A DNA stretch of 64,000 bases from Rubripirellula sp. (GCA_965216875.1 OZ244207.1:7072001-7136000); one strand, 5' to 3'. Counted from the stretch's first letter, positions 44,087 to 64,000 are shown. The notes: generated by a model from the letters alone, not told the origin. Translations and numbers: made by a program.

Positions 44087-44301
44087 TTATTGGGCGAGTC
44101 CCTTCGGCAACCCCCTCCTTTTCAAGGAGTGGGGAGCATTCCGCGCGTGGTCACGTGGGCGGAGCCACGACGCTGTAATTCTTGAAAGATTTCGGGGAAA
44201 GTCGGCAACTAGATTTAGCCGTCGAATCACAAAAGTCGATCCAACGGTTAAGGCTGTGCAAATCGGCGCAGTCGATAACGCGTGAAACTCGATTCCCCTT
44301 C

Positions 44302-45369: not shown

Positions 45370-45427
45370 GTCCGACCGACACGCACGATTTGTTCGCCAG
45401 AAAACGTCACTGAAGAAAGGTAGATAG

Positions 45428-45952
45428 ATGTCCGAGAGCAGCCAGAAATTCATCGCACGCAATCGGCCGCCACGCGTCCAGATTGAATACGACGTTGAAA
45501 CGTACGGTGCCGAAAAGAAGGTGCAACTTCCATTTGTGATGGGCGTGTTGGCTGACCTTTCGGGCAATCCCGCCGAGCCGCTCGAGGATGTCGCTGATCG
45601 CAAGTTCTTGGAAACGGATATCGACAACTTTGACGATCGCATGAAGTCGATGAAGCCGCGAGCGTCGTTTCGCGTGAAAAACACGTTGACTGGCGAAGGC
45701 GAGCTCGGTGTCGACTTGACCTTTGAATCGATGGACGACTTTTCGCCCGGCCGCGTGGCACAACGCGTCGAAGTGCTCGAAAAGCTGCTCAACGCTCGGA
45801 CTCACCTTTCGCAGTTGGCAACCTACATGGATGGCAAAACGGGCGCCGAGGAATTGGTCGCGCGCTTGATTAGCGATCCCGATCTGTTGAAAGAGCTCGC
45901 GGAAAAGCCACTCGACGTCGGGTCGGATGATTCGGAAGCCGAAGCCGCCTAG
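45428..45952 (+). CDS. tssB: T6SS contractile sheath small subunit
   Basis: SSQKFIARNRPPRVQIEYDVE..LPFVMGVLADLSG, DNFD, FESMDDFSP. Confidence 0.97.
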   Translation: MSESSQKFIARNRPPRVQIEYDVETYGAEKKVQLPFVMGVLADLSGNPAEPLEDVADRKFLETDIDNFDDRMKSMKPRASFRVKNTLTGEGELGVDLTFESMDDFSPGRVAQRVEVLEKLLNARTHLSQLATYMDGKTGAEELVARLISDPDLLKELAEKPLDVGSDDSEAEAA

Positions 45953-46034
45953 CCGGCGCGACTCGGACACGAGACGAACACACTTAGCCAACACAAAATA
46001 GCAAGACAATCACCTACCAATCGGGGACTCAAGG

Positions 46035-47534
46035 ATGAGTGATACCAAAGCCGAATCGAACACGGACGCAGAACCACAGGCTGCCGTGACGCTGGATAAT
46101 CTCGCCGAGATGATCGAGGCTGAGTTCCGTCCACGCAGCAGCGAAGCAACAAATGCGGTCGCCACTGCGGTCAACACGCTCGCCGAGCAGCTTGTGACCA
46201 GCGAGATGGTTGTCAACGAAGACGCCATCAAGACCATCGAAGCTTTGGTCGCTGAGATTGATCGCAAGATCGGCGAGCAAATGAACGAGATCTTGCATCA
46301 CGACGAGTTCCAGAAACTCGAAGGTGCCTGGCGCGGTCTGTCGCACTTGGTCAACAACACCGAGACCGACGAGATGTTGAAGATTCGTGTCTTGAATATC
46401 TCGAAAAAGGACCTGCACAAGACGCTCAAGAAGTTCAAAGGCACGGCTTGGGATCAAAGCCCCATCTTCAAGAAACTTTACGAAGAAGAGTACGGCCAAT
46501 TTGGTGGCGAGCCCTATGGCGCACTCATTGGCGACTACTACTTTGACCACACGCCAGTGGATGTTGAATTGTTGGGCGAAATCGCGAAGGTCGCCGCGGC
46601 GGCTCACGCGCCTTTCATCGCCTCAGCCGGTCCTTCGCTGATGCACATGGAATCATGGCAAGAATTGAGCAATCCGCGCGACTTGACCAAGATCTTCCAA
46701 ACCGCCGAGTACGCGTCGTGGCGTTCGCTGCGTGATGACGAAGATTCGCGTTACGTCGGTTTGGCCATGCCACGTTTCTTGGCACGGCAACCTTATGGTG
46801 CATCGAGCAATCCCGTTGAAGAGTTTGCTTTTGAAGAGGACACCGCAGGTCCGGATCACAGTCGCTACGTTTGGTCCAACTCGGCCTACGCGTTTGCGGT
46901 CAACGTGAATCGCTCGTTCAAACTGCACGGTTGGTGCTCGCGCATTCGCGGCATCGAATCGGGCGGTTCGGTCGAAAAACTGCCTGTGCATGTCTTCCCC
47001 ACCGACGATGGTGGCGTCGACATGAAGTGTCCGACCGAGATCGCAATTAGCGACCGTCGCGAAGCGGAATTGGCCAAGAACGGCCTGATGCCGTTGGTGT
47101 TCCGCAAGAACAGTGACCTTGCGTCGTTCATCGGTGCTCAATCATTGAACAACCCGACGATCTTCGAAGATGACGACGCGTCGGCGAATGCTCAGTTGTC
47201 GGGGCGTTTGCCTTATCTGTTTGCAGTTTGCCGATTTGCTCACTACCTCAAGTGCATCGTTCGCGACAAAGTCGGTTCGTTCAAAGAACGTAACGACATG
47301 CAAATCTGGTTGAACAACTGGATCAGCCAATACGTCGACACGAACCCAGCGACCGCCTCGGAACTCGACAAGGCCCGTCGGCCTCTCGCGGGCGCCGAAG
47401 TGGTGGTTGAAGAGATCCCAGGAAACCCAGGCTACTACAGCGCCAAGTTCTTCCTGCGACCTCACTACCAACTCGAAGGTTTGACCGTTTCGCTTCGCTT
47501 GGTCAGCAAGCTGCCGTCGGCAAAGGCCGCCTAG
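46035..47534 (+). CDS. tssC: T6SS contractile sheath large subunit
   Basis: FQKLEGAWRGL, EEEYGQFGGEPYG, AHAPFI, PRFLAR.PYG, CPTEIAISDRREAELA, RPHYQLEGL. Confidence 0.97.
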   Translation: MSDTKAESNTDAEPQAAVTLDNLAEMIEAEFRPRSSEATNAVATAVNTLAEQLVTSEMVVNEDAIKTIEALVAEIDRKIGEQMNEILHHDEFQKLEGAWRGLSHLVNNTETDEMLKIRVLNISKKDLHKTLKKFKGTAWDQSPIFKKLYEEEYGQFGGEPYGALIGDYYFDHTPVDVELLGEIAKVAAAAHAPFIASAGPSLMHMESWQELSNPRDLTKIFQTAEYASWRSLRDDEDSRYVGLAMPRFLARQPYGASSNPVEEFAFEEDTAGPDHSRYVWSNSAYAFAVNVNRSFKLHGWCSRIRGIESGGSVEKLPVHVFPTDDGGVDMKCPTEIAISDRREAELAKNGLMPLVFRKNSDLASFIGAQSLNNPTIFEDDDASANAQLSGRLPYLFAVCRFAHYLKCIVRDKVGSFKERNDMQIWLNNWISQYVDTNPATASELDKARRPLAGAEVVVEEIPGNPGYYSAKFFLRPHYQLEGLTVSLRLVSKLPSAKAA

Positions 47535-47624
47535 CACCAAGTTCGATTCATAGCGCCGGTCGCCATGGGCCGGCTTTCATGTAAGCCAATCCAATCGAAA
47601 AAACACACCGTACGGAGTTGAACG

Positions 47625-48104
47625 ATGATCTTGTTGAAATTCAAAAAGGAAATCAAAGGTGACGCAAGTGCCTCTGGTTTTGAGGGTCAAATTAAGCTCA
47701 TGTCGGCTTCGTTTACCGCATCGCGAATGGTTTCGGTTGCCGCCGGCAGCGAGGCGCGTGAGACGGGAACACCTGTGTTTTCGGAAGTGACGTGTGCGAA
47801 GGATTTTGACATCGCATCGACCGAGCTTTTCATGCAGAGCGTCTCGGGTGCAAGTTTGGAAGAGGCGACCTTGACCTACTTGCAAACCGACACGGAAGGA
47901 AACCCACAGGTCTTCTTGGAAGTCACGCTGACCGACCCGATCGTTACGAGCTACTCACACAGCGGGTCGGCGAATGACAAGCCGGGCGAGACGTTCACTT
48001 TGAACTTCACGCAAATCAAACTGGCTTACACCCAGTACACTGGCGAAAAAGCAACCTCGGCATCGCCGAAGGGTTGGAACCTGCTTAGTGCTTCGGCAGC
48101 GTAG
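47625..48104 (+). CDS. hcp: T6SS tube protein Hcp
   Basis: IKGDA, SEVTCAKDFDIAS, LEVTLTDPIVTSYS, ETFTLNFTQI..Y, GWNL; located after tssC. Confidence 0.92.
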   Translation: MILLKFKKEIKGDASASGFEGQIKLMSASFTASRMVSVAAGSEARETGTPVFSEVTCAKDFDIASTELFMQSVSGASLEEATLTYLQTDTEGNPQVFLEVTLTDPIVTSYSHSGSANDKPGETFTLNFTQIKLAYTQYTGEKATSASPKGWNLLSASAA

Positions 48105-48113
48105 TGACGGACG

Positions 48114-48668
48114 ATGGATCGCGATGTGCCTATGGCGCTGGCTGAGTCGTCACTGTTTGATCGGCTGACCACCCGGGATGCCGCCTCGACCGATCATCCT
48201 CCGCGATTTGTGGTGGATGCGGTGAGTGCGTCGCCGGACCAGGGCAGCGCAAAGATCAGCCGACGTGAACGCCTTCGTCAAATGGCAGTCATTCGTGGCC
48301 AGATTCGTCGCGACCTTCTGTTGTTGATGGGGACGCGACGGTTGCCGGTTGACGCCGACGTCCAACGTTGGCCGCAAGTCGAACAAAGCGTGCTGAACTT
48401 TGGTATCCCCGATGTGACCGGCGTGACATCGAGTGGCATCGATCTCAATAAGTTCTCGGCCGAGATTCGGCGCGTCGTGCAAAGGTACGAACCGCGACTG
48501 CATCGCAAATCAGTCGAAGTGACGAGTCGATTGGGCGAGCCCCCGACACGCGACTTGCAAGTCTGTATCGAAGGTTTGTTTGGTCCACCCGACGCCATTG
48601 AATCGTTTCGTCTTGGCGTTTCGATTTGCTTGAACACGGGCCAATGCGTCGCCATGGAACTTTCCTAG
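48114..48668 (+). CDS. tssE: T6SS baseplate TssE (gp25-like)
   Basis: SLFDRL, IRRDLLLLMGTR, SVLNFGIPD, YEPRL. Confidence 0.92.
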   Translation: MDRDVPMALAESSLFDRLTTRDAASTDHPPRFVVDAVSASPDQGSAKISRRERLRQMAVIRGQIRRDLLLLMGTRRLPVDADVQRWPQVEQSVLNFGIPDVTGVTSSGIDLNKFSAEIRRVVQRYEPRLHRKSVEVTSRLGEPPTRDLQVCIEGLFGPPDAIESFRLGVSICLNTGQCVAMELS

Positions 48669-48710
48669 GCAGCGAGACAGCCAAAGAAGAGTGCGGAAGA
48701 GACCAATCGC

Positions 48711-50612
48711 ATGGAAGCGCAATTCCTGGATCACTACAACCGAGAACTTAGTTACCTGCGAGAGCTGGGGACGGAGTTCGCCCAGGAATACCCGTCGGTC
48801 GCTGGACGCTTGGGCATGGGCGAGTTCGCTTGTGCCGATCCCTACGTCGAACGGTTACTCGAAGGCTTTGCGTTTCTCGCAGCTCGCGTTCACCGGCGAC
48901 TCGATGCAGAGTTTCCGCAGTTCACACGTGGCCTGCTCGAGTCAATCTACCCGCATTACACGCGGCCGATCCCGTCGGCGGCGATGATTGCAGTGCACCC
49001 CGATCCCGATGAAGGTTCCCTTGCATCGGGGTATCGTTTGCCACGCGGTACTCGCCTGAGTGGACCGACGAGTCAAAGCAGTCCTACACCCTGCCGATTC
49101 GAAACGACCCAGGATATCGACCTTTGGCCCATCCGCATCACGGGGGTTGAACTGGCCGATCGCGAGTCGGCGTATCGTAATCCATTGCCAGACGTGATCG
49201 ATGGCGGCCAAGCCAAGTCGTGTTTGCGTCTTCGGTTGGAGACGACCGCAGGCTTGCAGATGTCGGCGCTCGACCTGGACCGGTTGACATTGCATTTGCG
49301 CGGCGGCGAGGTTGCCGTTGAGCTATTGGAAATGCTCGTTGCCCACGCAACCCAGATTGCCGCTGGCGATCCGGTGTCGGATCAATGGTCACGAGTGAAT
49401 ACTACTGAGTTGACAGCGGGTGGCTTTGCATCGGACGAGGCGCTTTTGCCGGACGAGCCGCGTTCCTTTAGCGGGTATCGTCTTCTGCAAGAGTACTTTT
49501 TGCTTCCCGAAAAGTTCTTGTTCGTTCATTTGGGTGGGCTTGGTCCGGCCATCAAACGCACAAGCGACAAGCAATTCGAAATTGTGATTGGCCTCGATGC
49601 GCCGGCTCGAGACCTGGTGGGACGCGTGAGTGCGGATCACTTTGCCTTGCATTGTGTGCCGGCGGTCAACTTGTTCAAGCGTCGTGCGGATCGTGTCCAA
49701 ATATCGGATGCATCGCACGAGCATCACCTTGTGGTCGACCGCAGTCGCCCAATGGATTTCGAGATCTGGTCGGTCGAGGAGTTGGCAGGGCACGGGCAAA
49801 CGCCACAGCAGGAAATCGAGTTCCTGCCGCTCTACGCAACGCCAGCGAAGACGGCGGCGCGGCGTCAGCAGTCGACCTTCTTCACGATTGATCGTCGGCC
49901 GCGACAGCCTTCGGCGAATCAACGCGAATACGGTCATCGTTCCAATTACCTAGGCAGCGAAGTCTTTGTCACGCTCACCGACTCGCGCCAGCAACCGGCG
50001 CGGCATTTGATCCGGCAACTCTCATCGACGGTGTATTGCACCAATCGCGATCTGCCGTTGATCGCACCGGCATCAGGTTGGCGCGACGCATTCAAGCTCG
50101 ATGGTCCTGGACCGGTTGCGGCGCTGGAGTGTTTGAGCGGGCCAACTGTTCCGCGCGCACCGCTGACCACCGACGATGGCGAAACCTGCTGGCGGATTGT
50201 GAACCATCTCAACGCGAACCTGTTGTCGCTTGCTTCGCCGACGCACAACGGCGAATCGCATGATCCATCGGCGACCGCGTTGCTGCGCGAGATGCTTTAC
50301 CTCTATTGCCCCACTGACTTGCCGGCAACGAGTCGTCAAGTCGACGGGATTCTATCGCTGCGTCACGAGCATGTGACGAGACAGTTGCCGTTCGACGGAC
50401 CGATCGTCCATGGTCGCGGCGTTCACGTGAACATCGAATTTGACGAACTCGCCTTTGAAGGTAGCGGCGTCTTTTTGTTGGGCAGCGTGTTGGACCAGTT
50501 CATGTCGCGGTTTGTCAACTTGAATGGCTTCACACAGACCTCGATCCGTACGCCAGTTCGTGGGCCGGTTCACCGCTGGCCCGTGCGTGTCGGCCAAGGC
50601 CAATTGATTTAA
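48711..50612 (+). CDS. tssF: T6SS baseplate TssF
   Basis: YNRELSYLRELG.EFA, DPYVERLLEGFAFLAAR, YRLLQEYF..PEKFLF, CTNRDLP, GRG. Confidence 0.96.
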   Translation: MEAQFLDHYNRELSYLRELGTEFAQEYPSVAGRLGMGEFACADPYVERLLEGFAFLAARVHRRLDAEFPQFTRGLLESIYPHYTRPIPSAAMIAVHPDPDEGSLASGYRLPRGTRLSGPTSQSSPTPCRFETTQDIDLWPIRITGVELADRESAYRNPLPDVIDGGQAKSCLRLRLETTAGLQMSALDLDRLTLHLRGGEVAVELLEMLVAHATQIAAGDPVSDQWSRVNTTELTAGGFASDEALLPDEPRSFSGYRLLQEYFLLPEKFLFVHLGGLGPAIKRTSDKQFEIVIGLDAPARDLVGRVSADHFALHCVPAVNLFKRRADRVQISDASHEHHLVVDRSRPMDFEIWSVEELAGHGQTPQQEIEFLPLYATPAKTAARRQQSTFFTIDRRPRQPSANQREYGHRSNYLGSEVFVTLTDSRQQPARHLIRQLSSTVYCTNRDLPLIAPASGWRDAFKLDGPGPVAALECLSGPTVPRAPLTTDDGETCWRIVNHLNANLLSLASPTHNGESHDPSATALLREMLYLYCPTDLPATSRQVDGILSLRHEHVTRQLPFDGPIVHGRGVHVNIEFDELAFEGSGVFLLGSVLDQFMSRFVNLNGFTQTSIRTPVRGPVHRWPVRVGQGQLI

Positions 50613-50655
50613 ACCGCAAATTGAAAGCACCGTTTTAGCAAAGCAGTTACGAATC

Positions 50656-50699
50656 ACCCTCCTGCTTGCGGGAGGTTTGGACGCAAAGTCTGGCGAGGG
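50656..50699. repeat. CCCTCC..GGAGG palindromic element (also at 24975-25017)
   Basis: CCCTCCTGCTTGCGGGAGGTTTGGACGCAAAGTCTGGCGAGGG versus CCCTCCCGCTTGTGGGAGGGTCGGACGCAAAGTCCGGGGAGGG. Confidence 0.8.
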
Positions 50700-50753
50700 C
50701 GCGAATTGTGCTCATCCGCGCAGTGTCGATGCCTGGCCCGAGAGAAACATGAG

Positions 50754-51803
50754 ATGAATCCGACCGCACCAAGCCAACAAGACCGTGTCGACTGGAATCA
50801 TCAGGTTGCGGTTGAGATGAATCAGCTTGCCAACCAGTTCGACTTCTTTCAAGCGATTCGCCGAGTCGAGACGTTGTCGCAAGAGTTGCCCCGTGTTGGG
50901 CATGCGCAACAAGCCAACCAGGAAGCAGTGCGAATCAAGCAGTCGCCGGCAGTCGATTTCGCACCCTCGACGATCGATGAAATCGAACCCGATTCGTCGG
51001 GCCGCGTCGTCTTGAAACAACGCTTTTTTGGTTTGCTAGGTCCCAGCGGCCCCATGCCGTTGCACGTCACCGAACAAGTTCGCAATCAAACTCGCCACGA
51101 AGATGATGCAACGATCGAACAGTTCTTGAACCTGTTCCATCATCGAATGGGAACCCTTTTCTATCGTGCCTGGAGCAGCAGTCGGGGGGCGGTCCAGCGT
51201 GATCGGCCCGACCAGGATCGCTTTGCAGACTACTTGGCTGCGCTCTCCGGTGTGATGGCGAATCAGGACGCGGCGGAGACACCACCCACGTCGGCGGTCA
51301 CCATTCAAAACCGCTGGCACTTTACCGGACGGTTCGCTTCGTCGCACCGTAACGCCGAAGGCTTGCAAGCGGTGGTGTCATCCGTTGTGGACGCAAAGAC
51401 CCAGGTCTACAGTTTCGTGCTTCGCCAATTGCGTTTGCAAGAAGAGGATCGGACACGGTTGACCAAGCAGCCAACGGCCGCCGGTCGCGGCGGACGTCTC
51501 GGCCGTAGCGTTGTGCTCGGCCGGAGTGTTGCCGATCGTCGGTCAACGATTGGGTTGTGCATTGGGCCGGTCAAGTTCCAACTCTTCCGCGCGCTCCTTC
51601 CTGGCGGGCAGTTGCACGATTCGATTCGCAAGTTGATTCGAAGTTACATCGACCCTTCGCTTGCGTGTCAGGTACGGTTGATCCTTGACCGCACCAGTGT
51701 GCCGCGGATGTCGCTTGGACGCGAAGGGGCACTTGGGCAAAACGCTTGGATGTTCAGCTCCGCACCACGCACCGACCTTGGTGATTGCCAATACATGATC
51801 TGA
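50754..51803 (+). CDS. tssG: T6SS baseplate TssG
   Basis: FDFFQAIRRVE, FFGLLGPSGPMPLH, FLNLFHHR..LFYRAW, RNAEGL, LGQNAW. Confidence 0.95.
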   Translation: MNPTAPSQQDRVDWNHQVAVEMNQLANQFDFFQAIRRVETLSQELPRVGHAQQANQEAVRIKQSPAVDFAPSTIDEIEPDSSGRVVLKQRFFGLLGPSGPMPLHVTEQVRNQTRHEDDATIEQFLNLFHHRMGTLFYRAWSSSRGAVQRDRPDQDRFADYLAALSGVMANQDAAETPPTSAVTIQNRWHFTGRFASSHRNAEGLQAVVSSVVDAKTQVYSFVLRQLRLQEEDRTRLTKQPTAAGRGGRLGRSVVLGRSVADRRSTIGLCIGPVKFQLFRALLPGGQLHDSIRKLIRSYIDPSLACQVRLILDRTSVPRMSLGREGALGQNAWMFSSAPRTDLGDCQYMI

Positions 51804-51810
51804 GGTTCCG

Positions 51811-53808
51811 ATGACGCTTTCGCAATCATCTCGTTCGATTCAGTTTTCATCACCGATCGGTGACGACGGCGTGGTCGCCGAACGCGTCCATTGGAAAGAA
51901 CAATTGGGACGTCCGTTCGAAGGGCTTGTCGAACTTGCGTGTGATGCGGGCGATATCGATCCCGCCGACATCATTCGCCAACCTGCGTCGATTCGAATTG
52001 GCGATCCCGACGAAAGCCCAAGCTATTTGCACGGCTACGTTTCCGAATTTGGGATGACCGGATTCGACAAGGGTTTGTACCGCTATCGAGTCAAGCTTGT
52101 GCCCTGGTTTGCGTTGATGGCGCATGTGGGTGGTTCGCAAATCTTTCAAAACGAAACCGCGATCACGATCGCGCAAGCCATGATCGACCTGCGCGGTTTT
52201 TCGGGCGAACTCGAGGACAAGACTTCGGGCACACCGCGGACACGAGCCTATTGTGTTCAGTACAACGAGTCCGACTTTCGCTTTTTGAGTCGGTTGTTCG
52301 AAGAGGAAGGCATCTACTACTACTTTTCCTACAGCGAAAACCAGCACCAAATGGTCTTGTGCGATGACGTTGGCGCTCACGTTGCTGCCGATGGGCTCGA
52401 TACGTTGCCCTACCATCCGCAAGAAACGTTTGCCGTCGAAGCTTGCGTGTCGCGGTGGGCGAGCTATCGACGATTTGCGACGGCGTCCCACGTGATGAGC
52501 GACTATGACTTTCAGAAACCCTCCTCCGACATGACGGTTCGACAAAACGCGTCGGATTCGGAGAGCGATTGGCAGTGGTATCAACACCCCGGTCGGTACT
52601 TCGAAACCGACGACGGCCAATATTACGCGCGCGTACGCACCGAATCGGTGGCGGCAAATCAACAACGCTACGAGGTTGACGTTTCGACTCACGGCGTTCA
52701 GTGTGGCAATCTGCTGACCGTCAAGGATCATCCAACCGACGAACTGAACCGCGAATACTTGGTGGTGAGTGCCGAACTGACCGCGACGGCACCCGACGTC
52801 GCGGCGGGAAGTGACAGCACCGACGGCGGGTTCAAGTTTAAATCGCGATTGTCGATTCAATCGTCGGATGTGCCCTATCGAAGTGCTCGGACGACACGTC
52901 GTCGCATTATGCCGGGACCGCAGATCGCGACGGTCGTCGGTCCCGATGGCGAAGAGATTTGGACTGACGCGTACGGGCGGATCAAAGTTCAGTTTGCCTG
53001 GGATTTGGATGCGCCGGGCGACGACAGCAGTTCCTGCTGGATTCGCGTCTCGCAGCCGTGGACCGGAAATGGTTGGGGCGCGGTTTCGATCCCACGCGTG
53101 GGCCAAGAAGTGATCGTCGAGTTTCTTGATGGCGACGTCGATCGCCCGATCGTTACCGGACGCGTTTACAACGACGAATTGTCGCCGCCGGAAGCGCTCG
53201 CTGATAATCAGGCCAAGACCGTCTTGAGGACTCGAAGCACCAAAGGTGGCGACGTCGAGTCGTATCACGAGTTGACCTTTGATGACACAAAGGATGCGGA
53301 ACAGATTCTGCTGCACAGCGAACGCGATTTTGTGCGCGAGGTCGAAAACAACGACACCTTGAAGGTTGGCTTCGACAAATCGGATCCGGGTGATCAATCG
53401 ATCGAAATCTACAACGACCAAAACGTGCAAGTGGGCGTCGGCAGCGGTTCGGGTTCGCAGACTATCGACGTCGGCCAGGATCGTAGCGTTACGATTGATG
53501 CTGGTGACGACACGATCGTCGTCAAGAGTGGTGATCGAAATGTGTCGGCTGAACAAGGTGCGATCACGATCGAGGCCGCAACTTCGATCCAACTCAAGTG
53601 CGGCGACTCGGTGATTGAATTGACGCCGTCGGGGATTTCGATCAAAGCGGCTCAGGTCGATGTGCAGGCCGACACCACACTCAACCTAGGCGGTACCGAG
53701 GTCAACATCAGTGCCGACGCGGCGCTGACCGCACAAGGATCCGCATCAGCAGAACTGAGTAGTTCGGGCACGGCGACGATCAAAGGCGCGATGGTGATGA
53801 TCAATTAG
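51811..53808 (+). CDS. vgrG: T6SS spike protein VgrG (no evolved C-terminal extension)
   Basis: YCVQYNESDF.F.SRL.EEEGIYY, GPQIATVVG, DAYGRIKVQF.W, SCWIRVSQ, PRVGQEVIVEFLDGD.DRP, terminal beta-helix repeats. Confidence 0.96.
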   Translation: MTLSQSSRSIQFSSPIGDDGVVAERVHWKEQLGRPFEGLVELACDAGDIDPADIIRQPASIRIGDPDESPSYLHGYVSEFGMTGFDKGLYRYRVKLVPWFALMAHVGGSQIFQNETAITIAQAMIDLRGFSGELEDKTSGTPRTRAYCVQYNESDFRFLSRLFEEEGIYYYFSYSENQHQMVLCDDVGAHVAADGLDTLPYHPQETFAVEACVSRWASYRRFATASHVMSDYDFQKPSSDMTVRQNASDSESDWQWYQHPGRYFETDDGQYYARVRTESVAANQQRYEVDVSTHGVQCGNLLTVKDHPTDELNREYLVVSAELTATAPDVAAGSDSTDGGFKFKSRLSIQSSDVPYRSARTTRRRIMPGPQIATVVGPDGEEIWTDAYGRIKVQFAWDLDAPGDDSSSCWIRVSQPWTGNGWGAVSIPRVGQEVIVEFLDGDVDRPIVTGRVYNDELSPPEALADNQAKTVLRTRSTKGGDVESYHELTFDDTKDAEQILLHSERDFVREVENNDTLKVGFDKSDPGDQSIEIYNDQNVQVGVGSGSGSQTIDVGQDRSVTIDAGDDTIVVKSGDRNVSAEQGAITIEAATSIQLKCGDSVIELTPSGISIKAAQVDVQADTTLNLGGTEVNISADAALTAQGSASAELSSSGTATIKGAMVMIN

Positions 53809-53820
53809 GAAATCGACCCA

Positions 53821-54756
53821 ATGCCACTTCTATTGACCACAACGCGAGACGACCTGCCATCGCAGCGATTGATGCTGCGATCGGGTCAGTGCGCGCATGT
53901 TGGGCGAAGTGAGCTCGCAGAATTCAGCGTTCCGAACGATCGTGAACTCGCAGATAGTCATTTTGTGGTGCAATGCCGCGCCTCGGCGATCATCGAATCG
54001 CTTGGCGAAGAACTGGCATTGGTTTGTGACGGTGAATCGACCAGTCGAATTGAGTTTTCGGATCCGATGCATCAGCCCGCGCGCTTTATCGCCGGAAGCA
54101 CCGAATTCAATTTGCTGTGGACACCCGACGTTGCGATCCAATCGACTCGCGAAACCGACGACGATTCAGAATCGGACACTGAGCCGGTCGACGACAGCGA
54201 ACGTATTGGGATGGTGGCCGAGAAGCTCAAGTTGTCCGCCGATGCGATCGCTTTGATCCAAACACCTGACGTTGCAAGTGACTTTGTTTCGCGATTGATC
54301 CAACAAGGATGCGTTGACGATGCACTCGTTTCGGTTGCCGGGCTTTTGCCAGTGGTCGACGCTGTGGTTTGGGCATCCGAACTTCAAGCGTCAGGCGAGT
54401 TGCCGTCGGGCGAGTTGCCGTCGGGCGCGTTGCCGTCGGGCGCGTTGATCGATGCGGTGCGAACATGGACCGGCGATGTTACGGAAGAGTCCCGCTTGGC
54501 CGTTAAGCAGATCGTCGAGGGGGATGCCACGGACGATGGCCGCTTGAAGTGGATCGCGATGGCGGTCGTCTACAGCGGCGGGAGTCTCGCTCCTGAGGGT
54601 CAAGCGGTTGTGCCGCCGCCGGAACACTTGTCGGCGATTGCTGTCTCGTCGTCGGTTCGCTTCGCACTCGCGGCGCAGGAGGACCGAGAGGAGGCCAAGT
54701 TGGCTTGGGCGACGGCTGGCTTGGATCGCTTGCGTTCACGGATCTCCAACGAGTAA
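53821..54756 (+). CDS. Degenerate FHA domain fused to DUF6931-like domain
   Basis: N-terminal VGRS..PNDRELADSHF (FHA-like); C-terminal AVVWA..VRTW..WIAMAVVYSGGSLAP..VPPP.HL; sits between vgrG and PAAR. Confidence 0.7.
   Translation: MPLLLTTTRDDLPSQRLMLRSGQCAHVGRSELAEFSVPNDRELADSHFVVQCRASAIIESLGEELALVCDGESTSRIEFSDPMHQPARFIAGSTEFNLLWTPDVAIQSTRETDDDSESDTEPVDDSERIGMVAEKLKLSADAIALIQTPDVASDFVSRLIQQGCVDDALVSVAGLLPVVDAVVWASELQASGELPSGELPSGALPSGALIDAVRTWTGDVTEESRLAVKQIVEGDATDDGRLKWIAMAVVYSGGSLAPEGQAVVPPPEHLSAIAVSSSVRFALAAQEDREEAKLAWATAGLDRLRSRISNE
54391..54447. repeat. In-frame 15-bp tandem repeat (SGELP/SGALP, about x4)
   Basis: TCAGGCGAGTTGCCG TCGGGCGAGTTGCCG TCGGGCGCGTTGCCG TCGGGCGCGTTG. Confidence 0.85.
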
Positions 54757-54773
54757 TAAGGGAACTGAGAATA

Positions 54774-55064
54774 ATGCCTCCAGCAGCTCGAGTTGGTGAC
54801 ATGCACACCTGCACGTCGGTCACGGGAGTCGTGCCGCACGTTGGTGGTGCGATCATTGGACCCGGAGCACCGACGGTGATGTTGGAAGGGATGCCGGCGG
54901 CCGTTGTCGGCGATGAAGCGAGCTGCAACGGGCCGGCCGACGCACTCACGATGGGATCGGGAACGGTCATGATCGAAGGCAAACCTTCGGTCAGGGTTGG
55001 AGACGAAACGGCTCATGGCGGCTCGATTGCAGCGGGCGCGCCGACGGTGATGGTCGGCGACTGA
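54774..55064 (+). CDS. PAAR domain spike-tip protein (96 aa)
   Basis: MPPAARVGDMHTC, PHVGG, PAAVVGD, PSVRVGD.TAHGG; AAGGGA SD upstream. Confidence 0.95.
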   Translation: MPPAARVGDMHTCTSVTGVVPHVGGAIIGPGAPTVMLEGMPAAVVGDEASCNGPADALTMGSGTVMIEGKPSVRVGDETAHGGSIAAGAPTVMVGD

Positions 55065-55097: not shown

Positions 55098-58000
55098 ATG
55101 CGACGGTCGCGAAACACGAACGACCACCAAAGTTGGAGACCTATCCAGCGTTGGCGACAAACCGCGGCAAGTGCCAAGCGGTTAATGATCGCGCGCGCCG
55201 CGCTTGCCACGTTCTTGGGGATCTTCTTGGTCGGTTTCTTGGTGATCGCGTTTCGTCCGATGGTTCGACCAAACGCGGTCTTGGTCACGATCGGACCCAA
55301 GCTTGAAACCGACCTTAGCGAGTCAGTGCAGGTCGCGAACCAATCCATCCAGTCCATTTGGAACGCGACCGAGCCATTGCACTCGATCGAGGCCGCGTCG
55401 CCATTGGTGTTGGGCGACGCCCAGCATGTCAATCAATTCGTTGCCAACCACACACGGCGCGGACCGCGGTTGATCTACCTTGCCGGCGTCGCAAGTCCGG
55501 TCGCTGGCAAAGCGATGTTGGTATCGGGGCAATCGGGCGGCGCGACGGGCCAGTCTAGAGACGCGATGGGCCAATCGCTTGACGTTGGCGAGGTGATTCA
55601 AAGTTGTGCCAAGTCAATGCAGCCTTCGGTGATCGTCGTTGATGCCGTTCAGTCGCGACGATTGAAAGTCGGCGAGACGCCTGAGTTGACGGCGCTCGAA
55701 TTCGTGCGGAGTGTTAGCGAATCGATCGAACAACAAGGGCAAGCTCCCATTGCTGTCGTCGTCTGTCAAAGCGAACCAGAGCAACAGAGATCTCAAGCGA
55801 CAGGAACGCGATGCTCCGAGACTCTGGTCGCCGCACTCGGTAAGGCTGCCGACAACAAGTTGCCTGCCACGGACAAGGATGGAGACGGCGTGGTGACCGG
55901 CGGCGAAATGATTGACAAGTTGACTGCCCTGCCACGTCGCCGAGCCTACGCAGGAATTCCCCGCTTGCTGAGCAATCGGCCTCCGAACTATTGGCATGGC
56001 GTCTCGCTTTGGCCCGTTCATTCGATCGATTCGTCATCGACCGAAACCGCTCAATCGATCGCAGAGGTTGGAGCGAAGCCGACCGACGAAGAATCGAATG
56101 CCGACTCGGCGCCGCAACAGGCCGATGAGCTTCTGCAGGTCGAAGTCACCGCGCCGACACTCGCGCTTGCGATCAAGCTCCGCAAACTTGGCTACGACAC
56201 TCGTCGCTCGGAGGAATGCCAAGCGATCACGGATCAGTTGCGTGTCTTTTTGGATGATGACGCAGTCGAGGCTGATGTCATCAAGTGGTTAGCAGAACCG
56301 AAGATTGCAGACGCGAGATGGGACGAGCTTGTTTGGATGCGGTTTGTTTGCGGGCAATCCCATTCTTGGCCGCTCAAACAATCGTTGATCCAATGCCGCG
56401 TGCTCGCCAATCGCGTTGCCGTTGAAACATCGAAGCACAAATTCCTTGCTCAGCGCGTCGGCAAGGCTCAGTGGATGCGACTCGACGCGGAACGAAGTTT
56501 GGCCAGTCCCGTTCGCGGCAATCACCTTGAATACGCTGCTGGCTCCGTCAGCGATGCTCTAGCGAGGTTCCGGTTGATTCTTGACGATGCGATGGTGATT
56601 CAACAGGCCGAAAGAATCGTCGAACGCGATCGTCGCCGCGCCGAAGAGTTGCTTTCGATGCCAGTTCGAGCAAAGTCGCCACGATATGACTACGTTTGTC
56701 AGCGGCTCGCCGATGTCGTGGGCTTGCAAACTTGCTTGAATCGTGACCATGAAGACATGATTCGCGACTGTCGCCTGCTGGTGGAATCCATTCAACGTCG
56801 CAGTGACATGCGGCAAACGGAAGTCGCCCGAACCGTTCGCACCGCAACCGACTCGGCACCCCAAGGAAGTGACGTCGACAGCAACTTCCAGCTTTTCGAG
56901 ACGACGCAAATACGTGTCGCACGCTCGGCGCTGGTGACGGAACTCTTGACCGGGAACAAGATCGGAGCTGTCGAAAAGAAGTCATGCGAGGCAACGCGAT
57001 GTCTTGCTCACCCCGAAGCACATTTCGACCAAGTGGCATCGGCGGTGGTTGATTTTCGCAGTGCCATTGGCCAAGCAATGCGGCATCGGGGGCGGATGGT
57101 CGCACGGTCGAACCAGCAACGTGCACTCGACAAGCTGCGCCGCATCGCCTTGGATGCCCAGCGGTATAGCGTCGATGCAACCCGCACTCAACGCGACTTG
57201 CAAATTGGCAACGCCCGGCGCGCGATCCGCATCGCCGCCAAGCTTGACGAAACAATCATTGCCAACCTTTCCAGCGGCCCCGAAATCGATGTCCAGCTCC
57301 ACGGGTCGCTGGCTCGCACCGACAATGCCTGGCTTGATGTCACCGTTCGTCATCAAACGCAAACGCCCGCGCCGGGTTGGATTGAGATTGAATACGACAG
57401 CGCGGTGGTTGCGGTCGCGCCGATCACGGCGCCAGCGGTCCGAGCGTCGCGGATCGGCGAGGCTCGGTATCAGACGGTGATCCAACAGTCCCGACAGAAT
57501 GTCGATCCGAATCATGCAAGCGACGATCGTTTGCAACAGGTTCGAATTGATTTGCAACGAATCGGCGGCGCGTACGAATCAGCGGCGATCAACGTTCGTT
57601 GGGTGACCAAGGAAAACGTTTATCGGCGATCCGTGCCGCTCGAGCTGCCACTGCCGCAACTCGCTACCGTCGCCTTGGGAATGATCGGCGAGAATGCGGG
57701 TGACACCCAAGTTTGGCGTATGCGTGCCAATGACGATCGATTTCAAACATTGAACCTTCGTGCCACCGATGACTCGAGTGACACGCTTGCGGTTCGTTTG
57801 CTCGCCTGGAAAACGCCAGGTATGAAACCTCCGTCGACCTTGTCGTCACGGGCGGCCAATGAGTGGTTGTCTCAAGTCGCACCACCGGTTGAACTGGCCA
57901 AACAAGAATCGGTATTCGTCAAAGCGGGTGAATATGTGCCGGTCCGCTTCAAACCGCACAAGCTGAAACCCGCAGCGGAACCGATCACGGTGGGTACATT

Positions 58001-59465
58001 GCTGTGCGAAGTGACCGATCCAGTTGCCAAACGAGTTCAGTACATTGATCTGGGCCCCGCCGTTGTTCGTCCTTCGGCAGTGATCACACCCAAGGTTGCG
58101 TTCGACGCTGCCGCACGCCGTTTAACGCTTTCGATGGACGCACACGCGAGCAGCGTCGTGGGTGGGCCTAAGACTTGGGTTCAAGTCGAAGTGCGTGATG
58201 CGTCTACCAATCAATTGATTGCCGAAGACGATGTGGTGCTCCAGCGCGGCGGCCAGGTTGCCAAGGTTTACAGTACAGCGGCAAGCAATGGTCGCCCGGT
58301 CCGAATGCGTTTGAAAGTCGACGGCTGGCCAAGCGGGTATGTGTACGACATTGATACGGCGCGTTCCGATTCCGGCGTCGCATCGGCTGCTGCCAAGCCG
58401 CGTGTCGCCATCGTCGATCCCGCTCGAGAGCTTGTTATCCGTTCAAAGACGGGACAGATCGATGCGCATGTAGCGGTCGACCTGAGTGATCGATGGTTTC
58501 GCTACGGCCAAGACGAGATCGCGGTCGGACTCGATTTGAACCATGATCGCTACCTGCGCGACGAGCCAACCGTGTCATCCAAGCATCCTGTCTCAATTCA
58601 GTTCGCTTGGGCAGGAGTGAATGAACAAGGACAACTTGGAATCAGTAACCGCGTCGGGCACGTGCAACTTCATTTGCCCGTGCGTGGTCAAGCTCGCAAC
58701 CAACGGACGCAATTGATCGCGCAGTTGCGCCGAGGCGCGGAGATCACGTGGAGCCAACCGGTGACGGTCGTTTTCGATGATGAGCCGCCGGTGATCGAGG
58801 ACGTTCAAATCACGTCGGCGATTCCCGCGTCACTGGCCGGGCCACTGCAGATTCGGGTGAGCGTTGACGACGCTGGCTTGAGCGGCGCTGCGGTGGTTCG
58901 AGCCGGATGGGCAACGCTCGGTCAGACCGAATTTACGCCTGAAGTGACAGCAATGGAGGCCCAGCGGATGCAGGATGATCGGTGGGCGGTCGATGTCCCG
59001 GTTGATGGACTTGTGCCAGGCGTCCACACATTGCTAGTACAGGCAACGGACCGCGCCGGGAATGTTGGGAAGACAAAAAGCCTTGCGGTGCAGTTGTATT
59101 CCGCCGAGCAGTTGGCGGAACTGAAAAGCCAGCAAACAACGGCTGTTCACGGCAAGGTTGCCTACGTGAAACGTCCGTTAAAAGGGATCACGGTCAAACT
59201 GCGAAAAGTGATTCCGCCGAACGAGGAATCAGAAGGCGACGCCGATCCACCAGCAGCCAACACGGCACTCGAAACGGTCAGTGACGAGGTGGCTCATCAA
59301 GCCACGACGGCGGTCGATGGCTCGTTTTGGATCAAGGATGTTCGTGCGGGAGATTACGAGCTGCAGGTCGAAGGGCTCTATCGAGGGATGCGGCAACGCA
59401 AGACGATCAAGATCGCCGTGAAACCGCCGCAACCTGCTTCAGTCGATACGATTCGCGTGGATTGA
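55098..59465 (+). CDS. Large membrane-anchored protein: TM, inactive caspase-like domain with EF-hand loop, helical region, Ig-like domains, C-terminal carboxypeptidase-regulatory-like domain
   Basis: TM FLGIFLVGFLVIAF; LIYLAGVA, VIVVDAVQS, AAD..DKDGDGVVTGGEM; DDEPPVI..HTLLVQATDRAGN; VHGKV..TTAVDGSFWIKDV.AGDYEL. Confidence 0.75.
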   Translation: MRRSRNTNDHQSWRPIQRWRQTAASAKRLMIARAALATFLGIFLVGFLVIAFRPMVRPNAVLVTIGPKLETDLSESVQVANQSIQSIWNATEPLHSIEAASPLVLGDAQHVNQFVANHTRRGPRLIYLAGVASPVAGKAMLVSGQSGGATGQSRDAMGQSLDVGEVIQSCAKSMQPSVIVVDAVQSRRLKVGETPELTALEFVRSVSESIEQQGQAPIAVVVCQSEPEQQRSQATGTRCSETLVAALGKAADNKLPATDKDGDGVVTGGEMIDKLTALPRRRAYAGIPRLLSNRPPNYWHGVSLWPVHSIDSSSTETAQSIAEVGAKPTDEESNADSAPQQADELLQVEVTAPTLALAIKLRKLGYDTRRSEECQAITDQLRVFLDDDAVEADVIKWLAEPKIADARWDELVWMRFVCGQSHSWPLKQSLIQCRVLANRVAVETSKHKFLAQRVGKAQWMRLDAERSLASPVRGNHLEYAAGSVSDALARFRLILDDAMVIQQAERIVERDRRRAEELLSMPVRAKSPRYDYVCQRLADVVGLQTCLNRDHEDMIRDCRLLVESIQRRSDMRQTEVARTVRTATDSAPQGSDVDSNFQLFETTQIRVARSALVTELLTGNKIGAVEKKSCEATRCLAHPEAHFDQVASAVVDFRSAIGQAMRHRGRMVARSNQQRALDKLRRIALDAQRYSVDATRTQRDLQIGNARRAIRIAAKLDETIIANLSSGPEIDVQLHGSLARTDNAWLDVTVRHQTQTPAPGWIEIEYDSAVVAVAPITAPAVRASRIGEARYQTVIQQSRQNVDPNHASDDRLQQVRIDLQRIGGAYESAAINVRWVTKENVYRRSVPLELPLPQLATVALGMIGENAGDTQVWRMRANDDRFQTLNLRATDDSSDTLAVRLLAWKTPGMKPPSTLSSRAANEWLSQVAPPVELAKQESVFVKAGEYVPVRFKPHKLKPAAEPITVGTLLCEVTDPVAKRVQYIDLGPAVVRPSAVITPKVAFDAAARRLTLSMDAHASSVVGGPKTWVQVEVRDASTNQLIAEDDVVLQRGGQVAKVYSTAASNGRPVRMRLKVDGWPSGYVYDIDTARSDSGVASAAAKPRVAIVDPARELVIRSKTGQIDAHVAVDLSDRWFRYGQDEIAVGLDLNHDRYLRDEPTVSSKHPVSIQFAWAGVNEQGQLGISNRVGHVQLHLPVRGQARNQRTQLIAQLRRGAEITWSQPVTVVFDDEPPVIEDVQITSAIPASLAGPLQIRVSVDDAGLSGAAVVRAGWATLGQTEFTPEVTAMEAQRMQDDRWAVDVPVDGLVPGVHTLLVQATDRAGNVGKTKSLAVQLYSAEQLAELKSQQTTAVHGKVAYVKRPLKGITVKLRKVIPPNEESEGDADPPAANTALETVSDEVAHQATTAVDGSFWIKDVRAGDYELQVEGLYRGMRQRKTIKIAVKPPQPASVDTIRVD

Positions 59466-59473
59466 GCGTACGG

Positions 59474-60280
59474 ATGAGCGACACGAAAACCAATCACAGG
59501 ACTCACCCGCTTCGGCGTCATCAGGTTTGCATGCTGGTCGCTGCCGTCGCGCTGTTGTGTTCGGGGTGCGCCGGATTCGCAAGGCTTGATCGTGAAGCGA
59601 ACCCACACGCCCACCTTCCGCAAGGCCATCTGGTTGGCGTGAAACAGCCGATGACACTGCCCCGGTTTTTGGGGATCGACGCGTGCGCTCGCAAACTCGG
59701 TTCCTGCGGGCGCGGCGCTGTGCTTTATTGTCAAGCGACGGGTGAGAAGATTGCGGCCGTGGTTCCTGCGCTCGAGCCACCCGCGCCGCCACTGCCGATG
59801 TCGCATCCCGCCAACGCCGAGTCGCCATCGCCGGCAGTCGCTGCCGCACACAAGATGAAAAAAGCCAAGGCCGCCAAGGCCGCCAAGATCAAAGCTGTTG
59901 CGTTCTTGGGGAGCGAAGGTTGTCTTGAAAACCCGCTCGTCGAAGAAGGCATCCTCGCCGCACTCGATGACATTTCAGCCGACGTTCGGATCGCTGCGGT
60001 CGAGGCGGTCGTCAAATCGGCCCAGCGTGGTTGCGACGACAATTGCGTTGAGTGTTCGGACGGTTGCTGTAGCGAGCTGATTCGTTGCAAGTTGACCGCG
60101 ATGGTTTTTGAAATGCGAGACAACGGGTGCTATGTCGAGCCGAGTTCCAAGGCGCGGCGACTGGCACGTTTGGCACTCGATCTGTGCGGCGGCCCCATCG
60201 ATTGCTCACCGGTAACCGTTGTCGATGGCCCCACCGAAGTCCCACCGCCCGCCGTGATGAAAGCGGTCGGAAGCGAATAG
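59474..60280 (+). CDS. Cys-rich putative lipoprotein with HEAT-like repeat
   Basis: Hydrophobic stretch ending LCSG-C (lipobox-like), AALDDISADVRIAAVEAV, EPSSKARRLARLAL, many Cys; begins 8 nt after the previous stop. Confidence 0.75.
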   Translation: MSDTKTNHRTHPLRRHQVCMLVAAVALLCSGCAGFARLDREANPHAHLPQGHLVGVKQPMTLPRFLGIDACARKLGSCGRGAVLYCQATGEKIAAVVPALEPPAPPLPMSHPANAESPSPAVAAAHKMKKAKAAKAAKIKAVAFLGSEGCLENPLVEEGILAALDDISADVRIAAVEAVVKSAQRGCDDNCVECSDGCCSELIRCKLTAMVFEMRDNGCYVEPSSKARRLARLALDLCGGPIDCSPVTVVDGPTEVPPPAVMKAVGSE

Positions 60281-61654: not shown

Positions 61655-64000
61655 TTACCGTGTTGCCGACACTTCTGCAACTTCCGCATGAATGCTGCCG
61701 ACGATCGGCTGGTTCTTTTCGGTACGCATCGCACTCTGTTTCATTTCGGAAACCGGGCACACCCAGAACGTGACTCGGTCTTGAGTCGCTGTTTGATCAC
61801 GAGTGGGCTCTTGCGTGTGGCTGAGTTTGCGACGGAAGAAAGTGTGCACACTTGTGTGCCGCTTGGCGTCGTACCAATGAGTCTCGTCGCAGTGGTCGTC
61901 GTTCCCTGCTTTTACGATCAGCATTGAATCGGGCGTTGCACTGGCCGCGTATCGCAGGCGTAGTTGGAACCCGTCTTGGATCGGTTCGATTCGATACTCT
62001 ATGCCCGCAAGCGACGCGAGTGGTTTGTATTGATCGTTGCGGGTTTCGAGTTCGATCGTCATGCCGGTTGGTCGCTGGTCGCAAGTCCAAGCCTTCACTT
62101 CGTATTGCAACGCCTCTTCAGGCCAACGGCGACATTCAAATTGGCCAACGGGACAGACCGTCTCGTCAAGCCAAGCGACCGACCCGGTTCGGTAGACCGA
62201 AGTCGCATCGTTGACCCATGAATGGGCATTCTTTTGCGGTGTGACTTCGAGCCAAATCAGCTCGGGACGCCGCGCTACACGATGGTCTGTTCGTTGCAGC
62301 GAAAGTTGAAGACTGAGGTTGTTTCCGATGAGCTTGGGATGATGGATGGCCAACCGTCGCATCGAAGGTGTTTCGCTGGGATGGACCAACATCGAATCGG
62401 CGGACCAGCCCGAAAGGTAACGCTCCGCGATCGGCATGCCGCCAGCAGGGTCGGTATGCAATCGAATGTGGCTACCGGGTGAAACCGGCGCGATGATGGA
62501 TTGCGTCCCAATCGAAATGTTGACCAGCTCGTTTTCTTGTTCGATTCCGCTCACGGTGATGGTCTTGCCAATTGCGGCGGTGCTCCGCGAAGTGTTGGTT
62601 TCGACTTGGTAGGCGTGGGCGCTTGCAATCTGTTGTAGTTGGCCAAGCAAGTGATTCGCTTCGGTTGCGTCAACGCAAGCCTGCCCGCCAGTTCCTCGCG
62701 CGATCGCGTCAAACTGCTCGATCGCCTCGCGGTCGTTCTTGTCCAGTCCAAAGCCGATCACATGGACTCGAACATGGTTGGCGTTGGCGAGATTGACAAC
62801 CGAATCGAGAGAGACGTCGGCGTCGGGTCTCGGGTTGAATTGATAGTTCTTGCCGTCCGACACAACAACAACATCTTTGATGACGCCATCACCCAATCGA
62901 GTGACATCGTTGATGGCGGTGGTGATGGCAAGCAGCAGCGGAGTTTGCCCCCAGGGGGCGGTCGCAGCCAGGTGCTGACGCGCCTGGCTGAATTGTTCCG
63001 CGGCGAAGCGACCGGTTGGCAATGCAACTTCGACGTCTTCGAAGGGTTGCAGCGTGGGCGGGAATGGGAACTGTTTGTGGTAACGATTCTGAAGGATGAG
63101 TTCTTTGTCTTTGCCAAGTGCCATGCGATGGCCATAAAGGACGACGCCCACGTCGGTGTTGTCGAGCGTCAGTTGCCGGAGCATTTCGATCATGGCGGAT
63201 CGCGCGGCATCAAGCTTCGTTGCACCGAGTCCCGTCGCATGGCGGGCGATCTCGGGGTTGACCGGATCGTTCATCGATGCGGAGCAATCAAACACGAACG
63301 TGACGGCGCGACCGCGGGCAACGCCATCGACAAGGGTGACCTTTGCCGACCGGGGCGCAGCACGATTGTTGGCCGAAACGCCTCGCGAAGTGTCGGTAAT
63401 CGTGACGGGAGCCCAATAGGTGTGGCCGCGAAATCGGAAGGCTGCCTCGGCAGGGTCGCCGTTCCAAGACTTCATCGCGATGTGAGATTTGCGCGGCGCG
63501 TCGTCTTTATCCGACACGGCAAGACTGCGACCATCGGTCGTGTTGTGTTGGGTGACCGTCGCAATTCCCAACCCGACTGGCACTCGGCCTGAATTGGCTG
63601 CCAACTCAATCGAGATTTTGGCAGCTTTCACACCGCCGTCTGAATAGGAGGGGTCACTCGATGCCGACAACGAGAGACCGTGATCGGCACCCTTTACGTG
63701 CTCATTGAGTTGTTTTTCGATGTTTCGCTTGCGCGACGTCCATTGGTTGGAGTCAGGCAGGATCGCGTCGGCGGCATCGAGGAGTCGCGTTGCGGCGACG
63801 GCAAAGTGAGGTTTGTCAGCATCGCGGTCGGTGCGCCAAAAACCTTCCAATGCAACTTCGGCGCGGTCAGCCAATCGGAAGCGGCGCATTCGGTTTTGCG
63901 ATTGCGCGACGGTTTCGGAAAAGGAGCCATCGAGAGTGATGGCAACAACCCGTCGCCATTGCTGTGACGCAAGGTGGACTTCGATTTCAGGCGATGCCAA
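61655..64000 (-). CDS. Large von Willebrand factor A (vWA) domain protein (5' part outside window)
   Basis: MIDAS motif FVFDCSASM, GQTPL, VVVSDG, VHVIGF; ORF open to the window edge. Confidence 0.88.
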   Translation of the reverse strand: MASPEIEVHLASQQWRRVVAITLDGSFSETVAQSQNRMRRFRLADRAEVALEGFWRTDRDADKPHFAVAATRLLDAADAILPDSNQWTSRKRNIEKQLNEHVKGADHGLSLSASSDPSYSDGGVKAAKISIELAANSGRVPVGLGIATVTQHNTTDGRSLAVSDKDDAPRKSHIAMKSWNGDPAEAAFRFRGHTYWAPVTITDTSRGVSANNRAAPRSAKVTLVDGVARGRAVTFVFDCSASMNDPVNPEIARHATGLGATKLDAARSAMIEMLRQLTLDNTDVGVVLYGHRMALGKDKELILQNRYHKQFPFPPTLQPFEDVEVALPTGRFAAEQFSQARQHLAATAPWGQTPLLLAITTAINDVTRLGDGVIKDVVVVSDGKNYQFNPRPDADVSLDSVVNLANANHVRVHVIGFGLDKNDREAIEQFDAIARGTGGQACVDATEANHLLGQLQQIASAHAYQVETNTSRSTAAIGKTITVSGIEQENELVNISIGTQSIIAPVSPGSHIRLHTDPAGGMPIAERYLSGWSADSMLVHPSETPSMRRLAIHHPKLIGNNLSLQLSLQRTDHRVARRPELIWLEVTPQKNAHSWVNDATSVYRTGSVAWLDETVCPVGQFECRRWPEEALQYEVKAWTCDQRPTGMTIELETRNDQYKPLASLAGIEYRIEPIQDGFQLRLRYAASATPDSMLIVKAGNDDHCDETHWYDAKRHTSVHTFFRRKLSHTQEPTRDQTATQDRVTFWVCPVSEMKQSAMRTEKNQPIVGSIHAEVAEVSATR

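Follow-up and report, generated by a model that had tools for sequence, protein, structure and literature searches.

A widely conserved family of membrane-anchored proteins with a predicted pseudo-caspase domain, associated with type VI secretion in Planctomycetia

The crossing of the cell envelope by type VI secretion systems (T6SS) is known for TssJ-TssL-TssM in Proteobacteria and for TssN-TssQ-TssO-TssP-TssR in Bacteroidota. Canonical TssM-TssJ consists of the periplasmic domain of TssM and the lipoprotein TssJ. In this study, a stretch of 64,000 nucleotides from Rubripirellula sp. (GCA_965216875.1 OZ244207.1:7072001-7136000; the window, in full) was analysed, which holds a T6SS locus and a gene, here called X, encoding a large membrane protein. 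The composition TssJ-TssL-TssM of the T6SS-i membrane complex has been described (PMC10781749). The T6SS-iii complex of Bacteroidota is built from single-pass proteins; TssP carries PKD domains, and the lipoprotein TssR has a vWA domain (Bongiovanni et al. 2024, PMC10781749). A T6SS was noted in Rhodopirellula baltica in 2009 (PMC2660368), and Planctomycetes are among the listed T6SS phyla (PMC9113992). A T6SS is present in over a third of the sampled Planctomycetia genomes (46/120), and each TssM found there is cut off at the membrane. With moderate confidence, X is read as a structural component, on the periplasmic side, of a T6SS membrane complex not described so far, likely replacing the missing periplasmic half of TssM and TssJ. 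The replacement of the TssM periplasmic domain is argued from co-occurrence and from analogy.

X stands at the end of the run tssK-tssL-tssM-tssA-tssB-tssC-hcp-tssE-tssF-tssG-vgrG-FHA-like/DUF6931-PAAR. TssA, TssB, TssC, Hcp, TssE, TssF, TssG, TssK, TssL, VgrG and PAAR of the locus all score above the Pfam cut-off. The run and the parts of X are as follows, with lengths in amino acids (aa), transmembrane abbreviated as TM and the basis of each call in brackets.

39734..41868, + strand: tssK and tssL, TssL ending in its TM helix (Pfam, protein reading)
41890..43599, + strand: TssM, short at 569 aa, which stops in its third TM helix and has no periplasmic part (Pfam, protein reading)
44182..55064, + strand: tssA, tssB, tssC, hcp, tssE, tssF, tssG, vgrG, the FHA-like/DUF6931 gene and PAAR (Pfam)
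55098..59465, + strand: gene X, a 1455-aa single-pass membrane protein, directly after PAAR in the T6SS gene run (open reading frame call)
55197..55253, + strand: TM helix of X, about aa 34-52, behind an Arg/Lys-rich N-terminal tail, predicted N-in, C-out (hydropathy)
55266..56021, + strand: pseudo-caspase domain, aa 57-308, with a predicted caspase/hemoglobinase fold (structure model, fold matches, alignment)
55488-55490, + strand: Val131, at the His position (alignment)
55647-55649, + strand: Val184, at the catalytic-Cys position (alignment)
55872..55907, + strand: EF-hand-like loop (DxDxD..E), aa 259-270, single and unpaired, standard in this type of C14 domain (sequence, family alignment)
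56160..57242, + strand: all-helical region, aa 355-715, sharing homology with the corresponding part of V, a paralogue of X encoded nearby (model; profile-profile match)
57276..59111, + strand: about five predicted tandem Ig/FnIII-like beta-sandwiches, aa 727-1338 (model, fold search, Pfam)
59136..59462, + strand: predicted transthyretin-like/carboxypeptidase-regulatory domain, aa 1347-1455 (fold search, Pfam)

This locus resembles T6SS-i in encoding TssK, TssL and those parts of TssM that lie in the membrane and cytoplasm. X also recalls TssM-TssJ, being predicted to pass from the inner membrane by way of helices to beta domains and having a lipoprotein gene after it. Unlike in T6SS-i, TssM stops at the third helix, the predicted pseudo-caspase domain and tandem Ig-like folds are on a separate polypeptide, X, and the lipoprotein is of a HEAT-like kind. 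TssJ was not detected in the 99%-complete genome with two profiles, though a very divergent TssJ could escape them. No profile match to IcmF_C was obtained in the genome either, whereas an E. coli control was positive, and X is thus no sequence-level member of the TssM periplasmic domain. The genome has one T6SS gene set only. Twelve TssM proteins from related loci likewise stop at the third helix. In a sample of 401 genomes of the order (TssC in 110, none in 291), a short-TssM profile matched 102 of the 110 TssC-positive genomes, every match lying in a frame of at most 822 aa. This profile omits L076 and L077, where TssM appears split into two genes (L076:12913-17676, L077:2278-7051), a 202-aa part with two helices and a part of 521-605 aa, with tssL and a barrel candidate between them. 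In a sample of 120 genomes of the class (TssM in 46, none in 74), all 50 PF14331 matches (45/120 genomes) lie in frames of at most 718 aa. The T6SS-iii complex provides a precedent by analogy, not homology, as a non-TssJLM envelope complex with single-pass inner-membrane proteins, periplasmic beta-sandwiches and a vWA domain (PMC10781749). There, TssL and TssM are wholly replaced, whereas short forms are kept here; the vWA domain is found here on a TM-anchored giant, and a caspase-like domain is not mentioned in the consulted parts of PMC10781749.

The X family follows the T6SS across genomes. All 46 genomes matched by a first X profile are TssC-positive, and a C-terminal profile matched 78/110 TssC-positive compared with 3/291 TssC-negative genomes of the order, two of the three having a short-TssM match. 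When 15 of the 32 unmatched TssC-positive genomes were examined, all 15 were found to have large open reading frames (ORFs) with the X N-terminal domain, as a diverged copy. In the class sample, an ORF of at least 1300 aa bearing the domain is present in 42/46 TssM-positive and 3/74 TssM-negative genomes. An earlier reading of the window sequence (the original prediction) had supposed that homologues of X are linked to T6SS, and these counts bear this out. X is mostly single-copy per genome, and once present in its own genome, with a conserved architecture, as expected for a core part. The genus g3 was considered as a group lacking X, and this was rejected: all of the five genomes tested carry two large domain-bearing ORFs.

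Physical linkage was studied in 60 X loci, as stretches of up to 20 kb searched by BLAST with the window proteins, some contigs being short. A T6SS core gene was detected in 40 of them. The nearest upstream T6SS gene varies (tssK 9, PAAR 8, FHA-like 7, tssA 6, vgrG 3, others 4), and X is therefore tied to the machine, not to one subunit. In genome G243, an X-lipoprotein-V-hcp-vgrG-PAAR group lies about 40 kb from tssC.

The ORF at 55098-59465 (+ strand) encodes 1455 aa, as had been proposed. The nearest database relatives are 33-35% identical, come from Rhodopirellula, Rubripirellula and Neorhodopirellula, and are named just 'carboxypeptidase regulatory-like' or 'EF-hand domain-containing', which makes a Pirellulaceae planctomycete the most likely origin of the window; homologues are mostly 1450-2000 aa long (about 60 loci from genome searches). 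The Pfam search of X itself gave no caspase match, only matches under the cut-off to CarboxypepD_reg (aa 1386-1450, E 2.4e-6), Big_13 (aa 1284-1331, E 4.4e-4) and, weakly, the EMC7 beta-sandwich. Three caspase-like motifs had been read from the sequence. LIYLAGVA was placed correctly (aa 125-132, 55470-55493); VIVVDAVQS is present as aa 178-186, one nucleotide from where it had been put, at 55629-55655; and LVAALGKAAD is present as aa 243-252 at 55824-55853, but the coordinates given for it, 55872-55910, cover DKDGDGVVTGGEM (aa 259-271), six residues later.

Hydropathy identifies a single hydrophobic helix in X, at about aa 34-52. A single TM helix is also found in 113/116 long relatives, with an additional TM-like stretch in 1/116, and Lys and Arg are more numerous before than after the helix in 100/113. 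Given this positive-inside bias and the one TM helix, the bulk of X is predicted to be periplasmic, as supposed earlier, rather than cytoplasmic, with the helix as an inner-membrane anchor.

The fold of aa 57-308 was modelled on a 56-sequence alignment made up mostly of relatives, and the model is confident (predicted local distance difference test (pLDDT) 84.8, predicted template modelling score (pTM) 0.87). The top structural match is MALT1 (3v4o_A, Z 15.2, root-mean-square deviation (rmsd) 3.7, 203 aligned). The top 24 rows of the fold search (VIA) all belong to clan CD, the first unrelated row having Z 8.7, and the matches include MALT1, caspases, legumains, metacaspases, c-FLIP and Raptor. 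Foldseek concurs, with each listed row being a caspase, MALT1 or GSU0716. Peptidase_C14 (Pfam) is matched by 9/37 aligned N-terminal domains of the family (best E 9.7e-6). Because these relatives match Peptidase_C14 and the model matches clan CD structures, the caspase assignment is beyond chance, and a caspase/hemoglobinase (clan CD) fold is predicted for the N-terminal domain, in keeping with the original prediction for about aa 55-300. Other searches gave weaker matches: one relative matches NF047832 at E 7.8e-10, far under the cut-off. When PDB sequences were searched with the N-terminal profile, no match was better than E 0.028, and almost all of them fell on the EF-like loop. At E 1e-30 or better, the domain profile matches 909 representatives at 50% identity. 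The N-terminal alignments omit L046 and L078 (domain incomplete), and the fold alignment omits L034 (contains X); further rows omitted are L051 (shortened) from A6, L072 from A9 and L069/L066 from A8.

The loss of both catalytic residues, proposed for X, holds for X itself with Val131 and Val184, but not for its family as a whole. Among the best 150 domain-profile matches out of 1.84 billion representatives, to which the residue counts refer, His is retained in 106/150 (and in 37/56 aligned rows), and the catalytic-Cys site is Gly in 121/150 and Cys in 2/150. His is also gone in the five nearest aligned relatives of X. Loss of both dyad residues is thus typical, in the sequences compared, of the diverged clade of X, and the family mostly loses Cys alone. 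In a quick tree, the X clade is on a long branch, the X proteins do not form one clade, and X and V domains are separated from 11 control C14 domains with support 91.

With C14 caspase homologues (orthocaspases, EACC1-associated caspases), MALT1 and caspases, X shares the predicted fold, the motif order and the GL.G.AD.D.D..V...EL loop. It differs from them in lacking the His-Cys dyad, in its N-terminal helix anchor and in the fusion to over 1100 aa of helical and beta-sandwich regions. A fold without the dyad is shared with pseudo-caspases, c-FLIP-L (Z 13.8) and Raptor (Z 10.1) being among the structural matches. About 90% of the bacterial pseudo-orthocaspases published so far come from Alphaproteobacteria or cyanobacteria, and Tyr-Ser variants make up most of them; the words 'secretion' and 'transmembrane' are absent from the main text of that study (PMC6426788). 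Unlike these, the X family is His/Gly, planctomycete and T6SS-linked, and it adds a large family of membrane-anchored bacterial pseudo-caspases in a context unlike the published ones. A term search of PMC3482391 returned nothing on the X family, and no description of it was found in full-text searches of a literature set thin in subscription journals. The X family is real and widely conserved, and apparently undescribed as a T6SS-associated pseudo-caspase family.

The EF-hand loop that had been singled out in X is present, and DKDGDGVVTGGE satisfies the 12-residue pattern (D1, D/N3, D/N5, E12). In the best 150 matches, D1 is conserved in 143, D/N3 in 143, D/N5 in 147 and E12 in 148, with Gly6 in merely 43; this strong conservation suggests a metal site in the X family. 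A paired helix-loop-helix EF-hand was not found in X, which has one loop, inside the caspase domain; in the model, the helix before the loop ends 12 residues ahead of D1, and the Pfam EF-hand families each match at most 4/37 members, at E 0.026 or worse. The loop is not special to X. It was also found at 30 control C14 loci, in 11 of 24 aligned segments, and four of the proteins concerned keep both His and Cys of the dyad; the search profile behind this count favours loop-bearing proteins. EF-hand motifs are mentioned for prokaryotic caspase homologues in PMC6426788. As the loop is inherited and shared with controls whose catalytic dyad is intact, it tells little of a Ca2+ role particular to X. 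A second acidic loop, DLNHDRYL (aa 1146-1156, 58533-58565), lies inside a beta-sandwich and is kept as D-x-D/N-x-D-R in most relatives; it was rejected as a second EF-hand, having no conserved E12, and is a possible second metal site.

Beyond the pseudo-caspase domain, the model of aa 345-1455 (pLDDT 88.6, pTM 0.69) consists of helices, about five sandwiches and a transthyretin-like tip. The helical region matches that of V at 96% probability (E 1.6e-9) in profile-profile comparison, whereas single-sequence comparison found no match between X and V outside the caspase domain. The stretch aa 950-1340 is among the best conserved of the family. The tip matches carboxypeptidase D (1qmu_A) with Z 11.8, rmsd 1.5 and 76 aligned; together with the model and the Pfam matches, this supports the Ig-like and carboxypeptidase-regulatory C-terminus proposed before, and an X-type C-terminus is found in 116/117 long top matches. 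At about 4 nm per sandwich, six sandwiches could span the periplasm if extended. Foldseek with aa 345-1455 found no solved structure matching the whole, only generic tandem Ig-domain proteins (template modelling score about 0.1). No TssM or TssJ chain is among the listed fold-search rows for this 1111-residue model, in which the helical region is barely covered and a distant likeness is possible. The protein atlas (best score 0.86) gave leads only, to CarboxypepD_reg and Peptidase_C14 clusters.

Three neighbouring genes are frequent or candidate companions of X.

59474..60280, + strand: Cys-rich HEAT-like predicted lipoprotein, 268 aa, with a lipobox-like LCSGC, 8 bp after X (sequence, profiles)
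61655..64000, - strand: paralogue V, 1520 aa, convergent with X, its 3' half in the window and the gene continuing to 66217, with TM helix, pseudo-caspase domain, helical region and vWA (profiles, alignment)
38120..39592, - strand: exported 490-aa protein, divergent from tssK, a candidate outer-membrane barrel (locus BLAST, PF13557 matches)

The lipoprotein was detected in 33/60 X loci, and 24/32 of its members match HEAT_2. Longer versions have a PPIC-type rotamase domain (L046:13222-15150, L083:7732-9558), and several relatives seem, from N-termini read by eye, to have an ordinary signal peptide instead of the lipobox. V was detected in 22/60 X loci; neither it nor the lipoprotein was part of the original prediction. 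The barrel candidate was detected in 8/60 X loci, and 2/4 homologues tested weakly match PF13557, a family that we take to be an outer-membrane barrel; its product is a candidate for the outer-membrane exit of this T6SS. In G221 and G352, it adjoins the lipoprotein. As conserved candidates for the missing part, the X family and its companions offer X, V, the lipoprotein and the barrel, which makes the question of how this T6SS crosses the envelope testable.

In the reading of X as a structural part, TssK and the short TssL-TssM pair would still dock the baseplate at the cytoplasmic face, with X and V anchored beside them in the inner membrane. The pseudo-caspase domains of both may serve as membrane-proximal assembly or peptide-binding modules, perhaps pairing, by analogy, like the domains of caspase-8 and c-FLIP, and Ca2+ in the loop may stiffen them. 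The helical and Ig-like arms, and the vWA domain of V, would cross the periplasm to the lipoprotein and possibly to the barrel protein, resulting in a tether or cage for the tube. The planctomycete periplasm is enlarged and variable, with inner-outer membrane contact sites (PMC5394234), which gives a reason for long arms. A more specific version is possible, though we would sooner doubt than accept it: a third kind of T6SS membrane complex in Planctomycetia, in which the short TssL-TssM docks the baseplate, and X, with its Ig-like arm, and V, with its vWA arm, pair through their dead caspase domains and build a periplasmic channel to the HEAT lipoprotein and the outer-membrane barrel. In that case, a bacterial secretion machine would have recruited the caspase fold for a structural purpose, in a form that suits a wide, variable periplasm.

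Several points weigh against X as a structural part. The evidence is all genomic or modelled, and the contacts of X with TssL, TssM, TssK, V and the lipoprotein are inferred. Every TssM of the class sample is short, which leaves no group with full-length TssM and TssJ for comparison; the genomes are related and the counts therefore non-independent, and 4/46 TssM-positive class genomes are without a large match. No T6SS core gene was detected within up to 20 kb in 20/60 X loci, and none of core gene, lipoprotein and V in 16/60; in G145, the X-V pair is about 500 kb from the core, beside vgrG. A profile built without X scores X at just E 0.0097 in a 15-sequence test set, with close relatives down to 2.6e-12, so the fold model leans on relatives. 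In addition, the pTM of the arm model permits a compact shape.

X and V could instead be periplasmic sensors or regulators of T6SS assembly, outside the channel, whose pseudo-caspase domain binds peptide or senses the envelope and signals across the membrane, for example to a pathway of Ser/Thr kinase and FHA. The cluster holds both a Ser/Thr kinase (35648-37945) and the FHA-like/DUF6931 gene, and the latter is the closest T6SS gene upstream of X in 7/60 loci. Most of the family keeps the His-Gly motif and the Asp that precedes the Cys site, as in a retained binding pocket, and X can be encoded far from the core. However, the cytoplasmic tail, only about 30-60 aa long, contains no output domain that was recognised, and the kinase is detected in few X loci. 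An almost universal presence is also more in keeping with a core part than with a lineage-specific regulator, and a sensor would not account for the absent TssM half and TssJ, which makes a regulatory role rather unlikely. It is unlikely, too, that X serves to place or support the machine and forms no conduit, by holding the membranes together, localising the T6SS to contact sites or acting as an adhesin-like accessory, with the short TssK-TssL-TssM being enough for firing. The C-terminal half does resemble adhesins and pilins in their tandem Ig/FnIII and CnaB/transthyretin-like domains, and an enlarged periplasm with contact sites would suit such a role. Yet domain searches recognised no peptidoglycan-binding or outer-membrane domain in X, and its restriction to T6SS genomes (3/291 otherwise) speaks against a general envelope role.

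The position of X directly after PAAR, the PAAR, vgrG or FHA-like gene as nearest upstream neighbour in 18/60 loci, and X-V genes with vgrG away from the core in G145 and G243 would be expected if X were cargo, as a large membrane-bearing effector or a spike-loading factor delivered with VgrG/PAAR. This is very improbable given the class-wide conserved architecture, the mostly single copy, the N-in signal-anchor topology and the lack of a catalytic dyad, and X is equally often beside tssK or tssA. Hardly credible is a domain that is still a protease or peptide ligase, through a non-canonical nucleophile or an active site completed with V. His is kept in most X relatives and in 20/26 V proteins, and a Cys stands one residue ahead of the canonical site in 10/26 V, including that of this genome; the canonical Cys, however, is found in 2/150 X and 1/26 V, the shifted Cys of V is not conserved, and X and its five closest aligned relatives lack His too.

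Other genes in and around the cluster were also observed. The gene at 53821-54756 (+ strand) has a weak FHA-like (YscD cytoplasmic) N-terminal match and DUF6931, and stands between vgrG and PAAR/X in many loci. The Ser/Thr kinase gene (+ strand) has a C-terminal TPR-like stretch and lies just outside the cluster. Between the lipoprotein and V, a 217-aa ORF (60996-61649, + strand) has homologues in two closely related loci only. The genome seems to lack a dedicated ClpV, the best match (TIGR03345) being under the cut-off and far from the cluster. The ClpV-like matches are outside the window, at G000:C1:1594163-1596718 and 6387493-6390057; the best one follows a DnaK-like gene and is presumably ClpB, and the second, by our assumption, resembles ClpC. 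In the G243 cluster, a Clp ATPase is present after tssG. Two neighbouring caspase-like genes without relation to the T6SS (G000:C1:2737749-2742091), likewise beyond the window, are a possible caspase/pseudo-caspase pair, one having intact His-Cys motifs and the other Ile at the Cys site, and on one contig of another genome (G618:C25) 11 Peptidase_C14 matches lie within about 46 kb.

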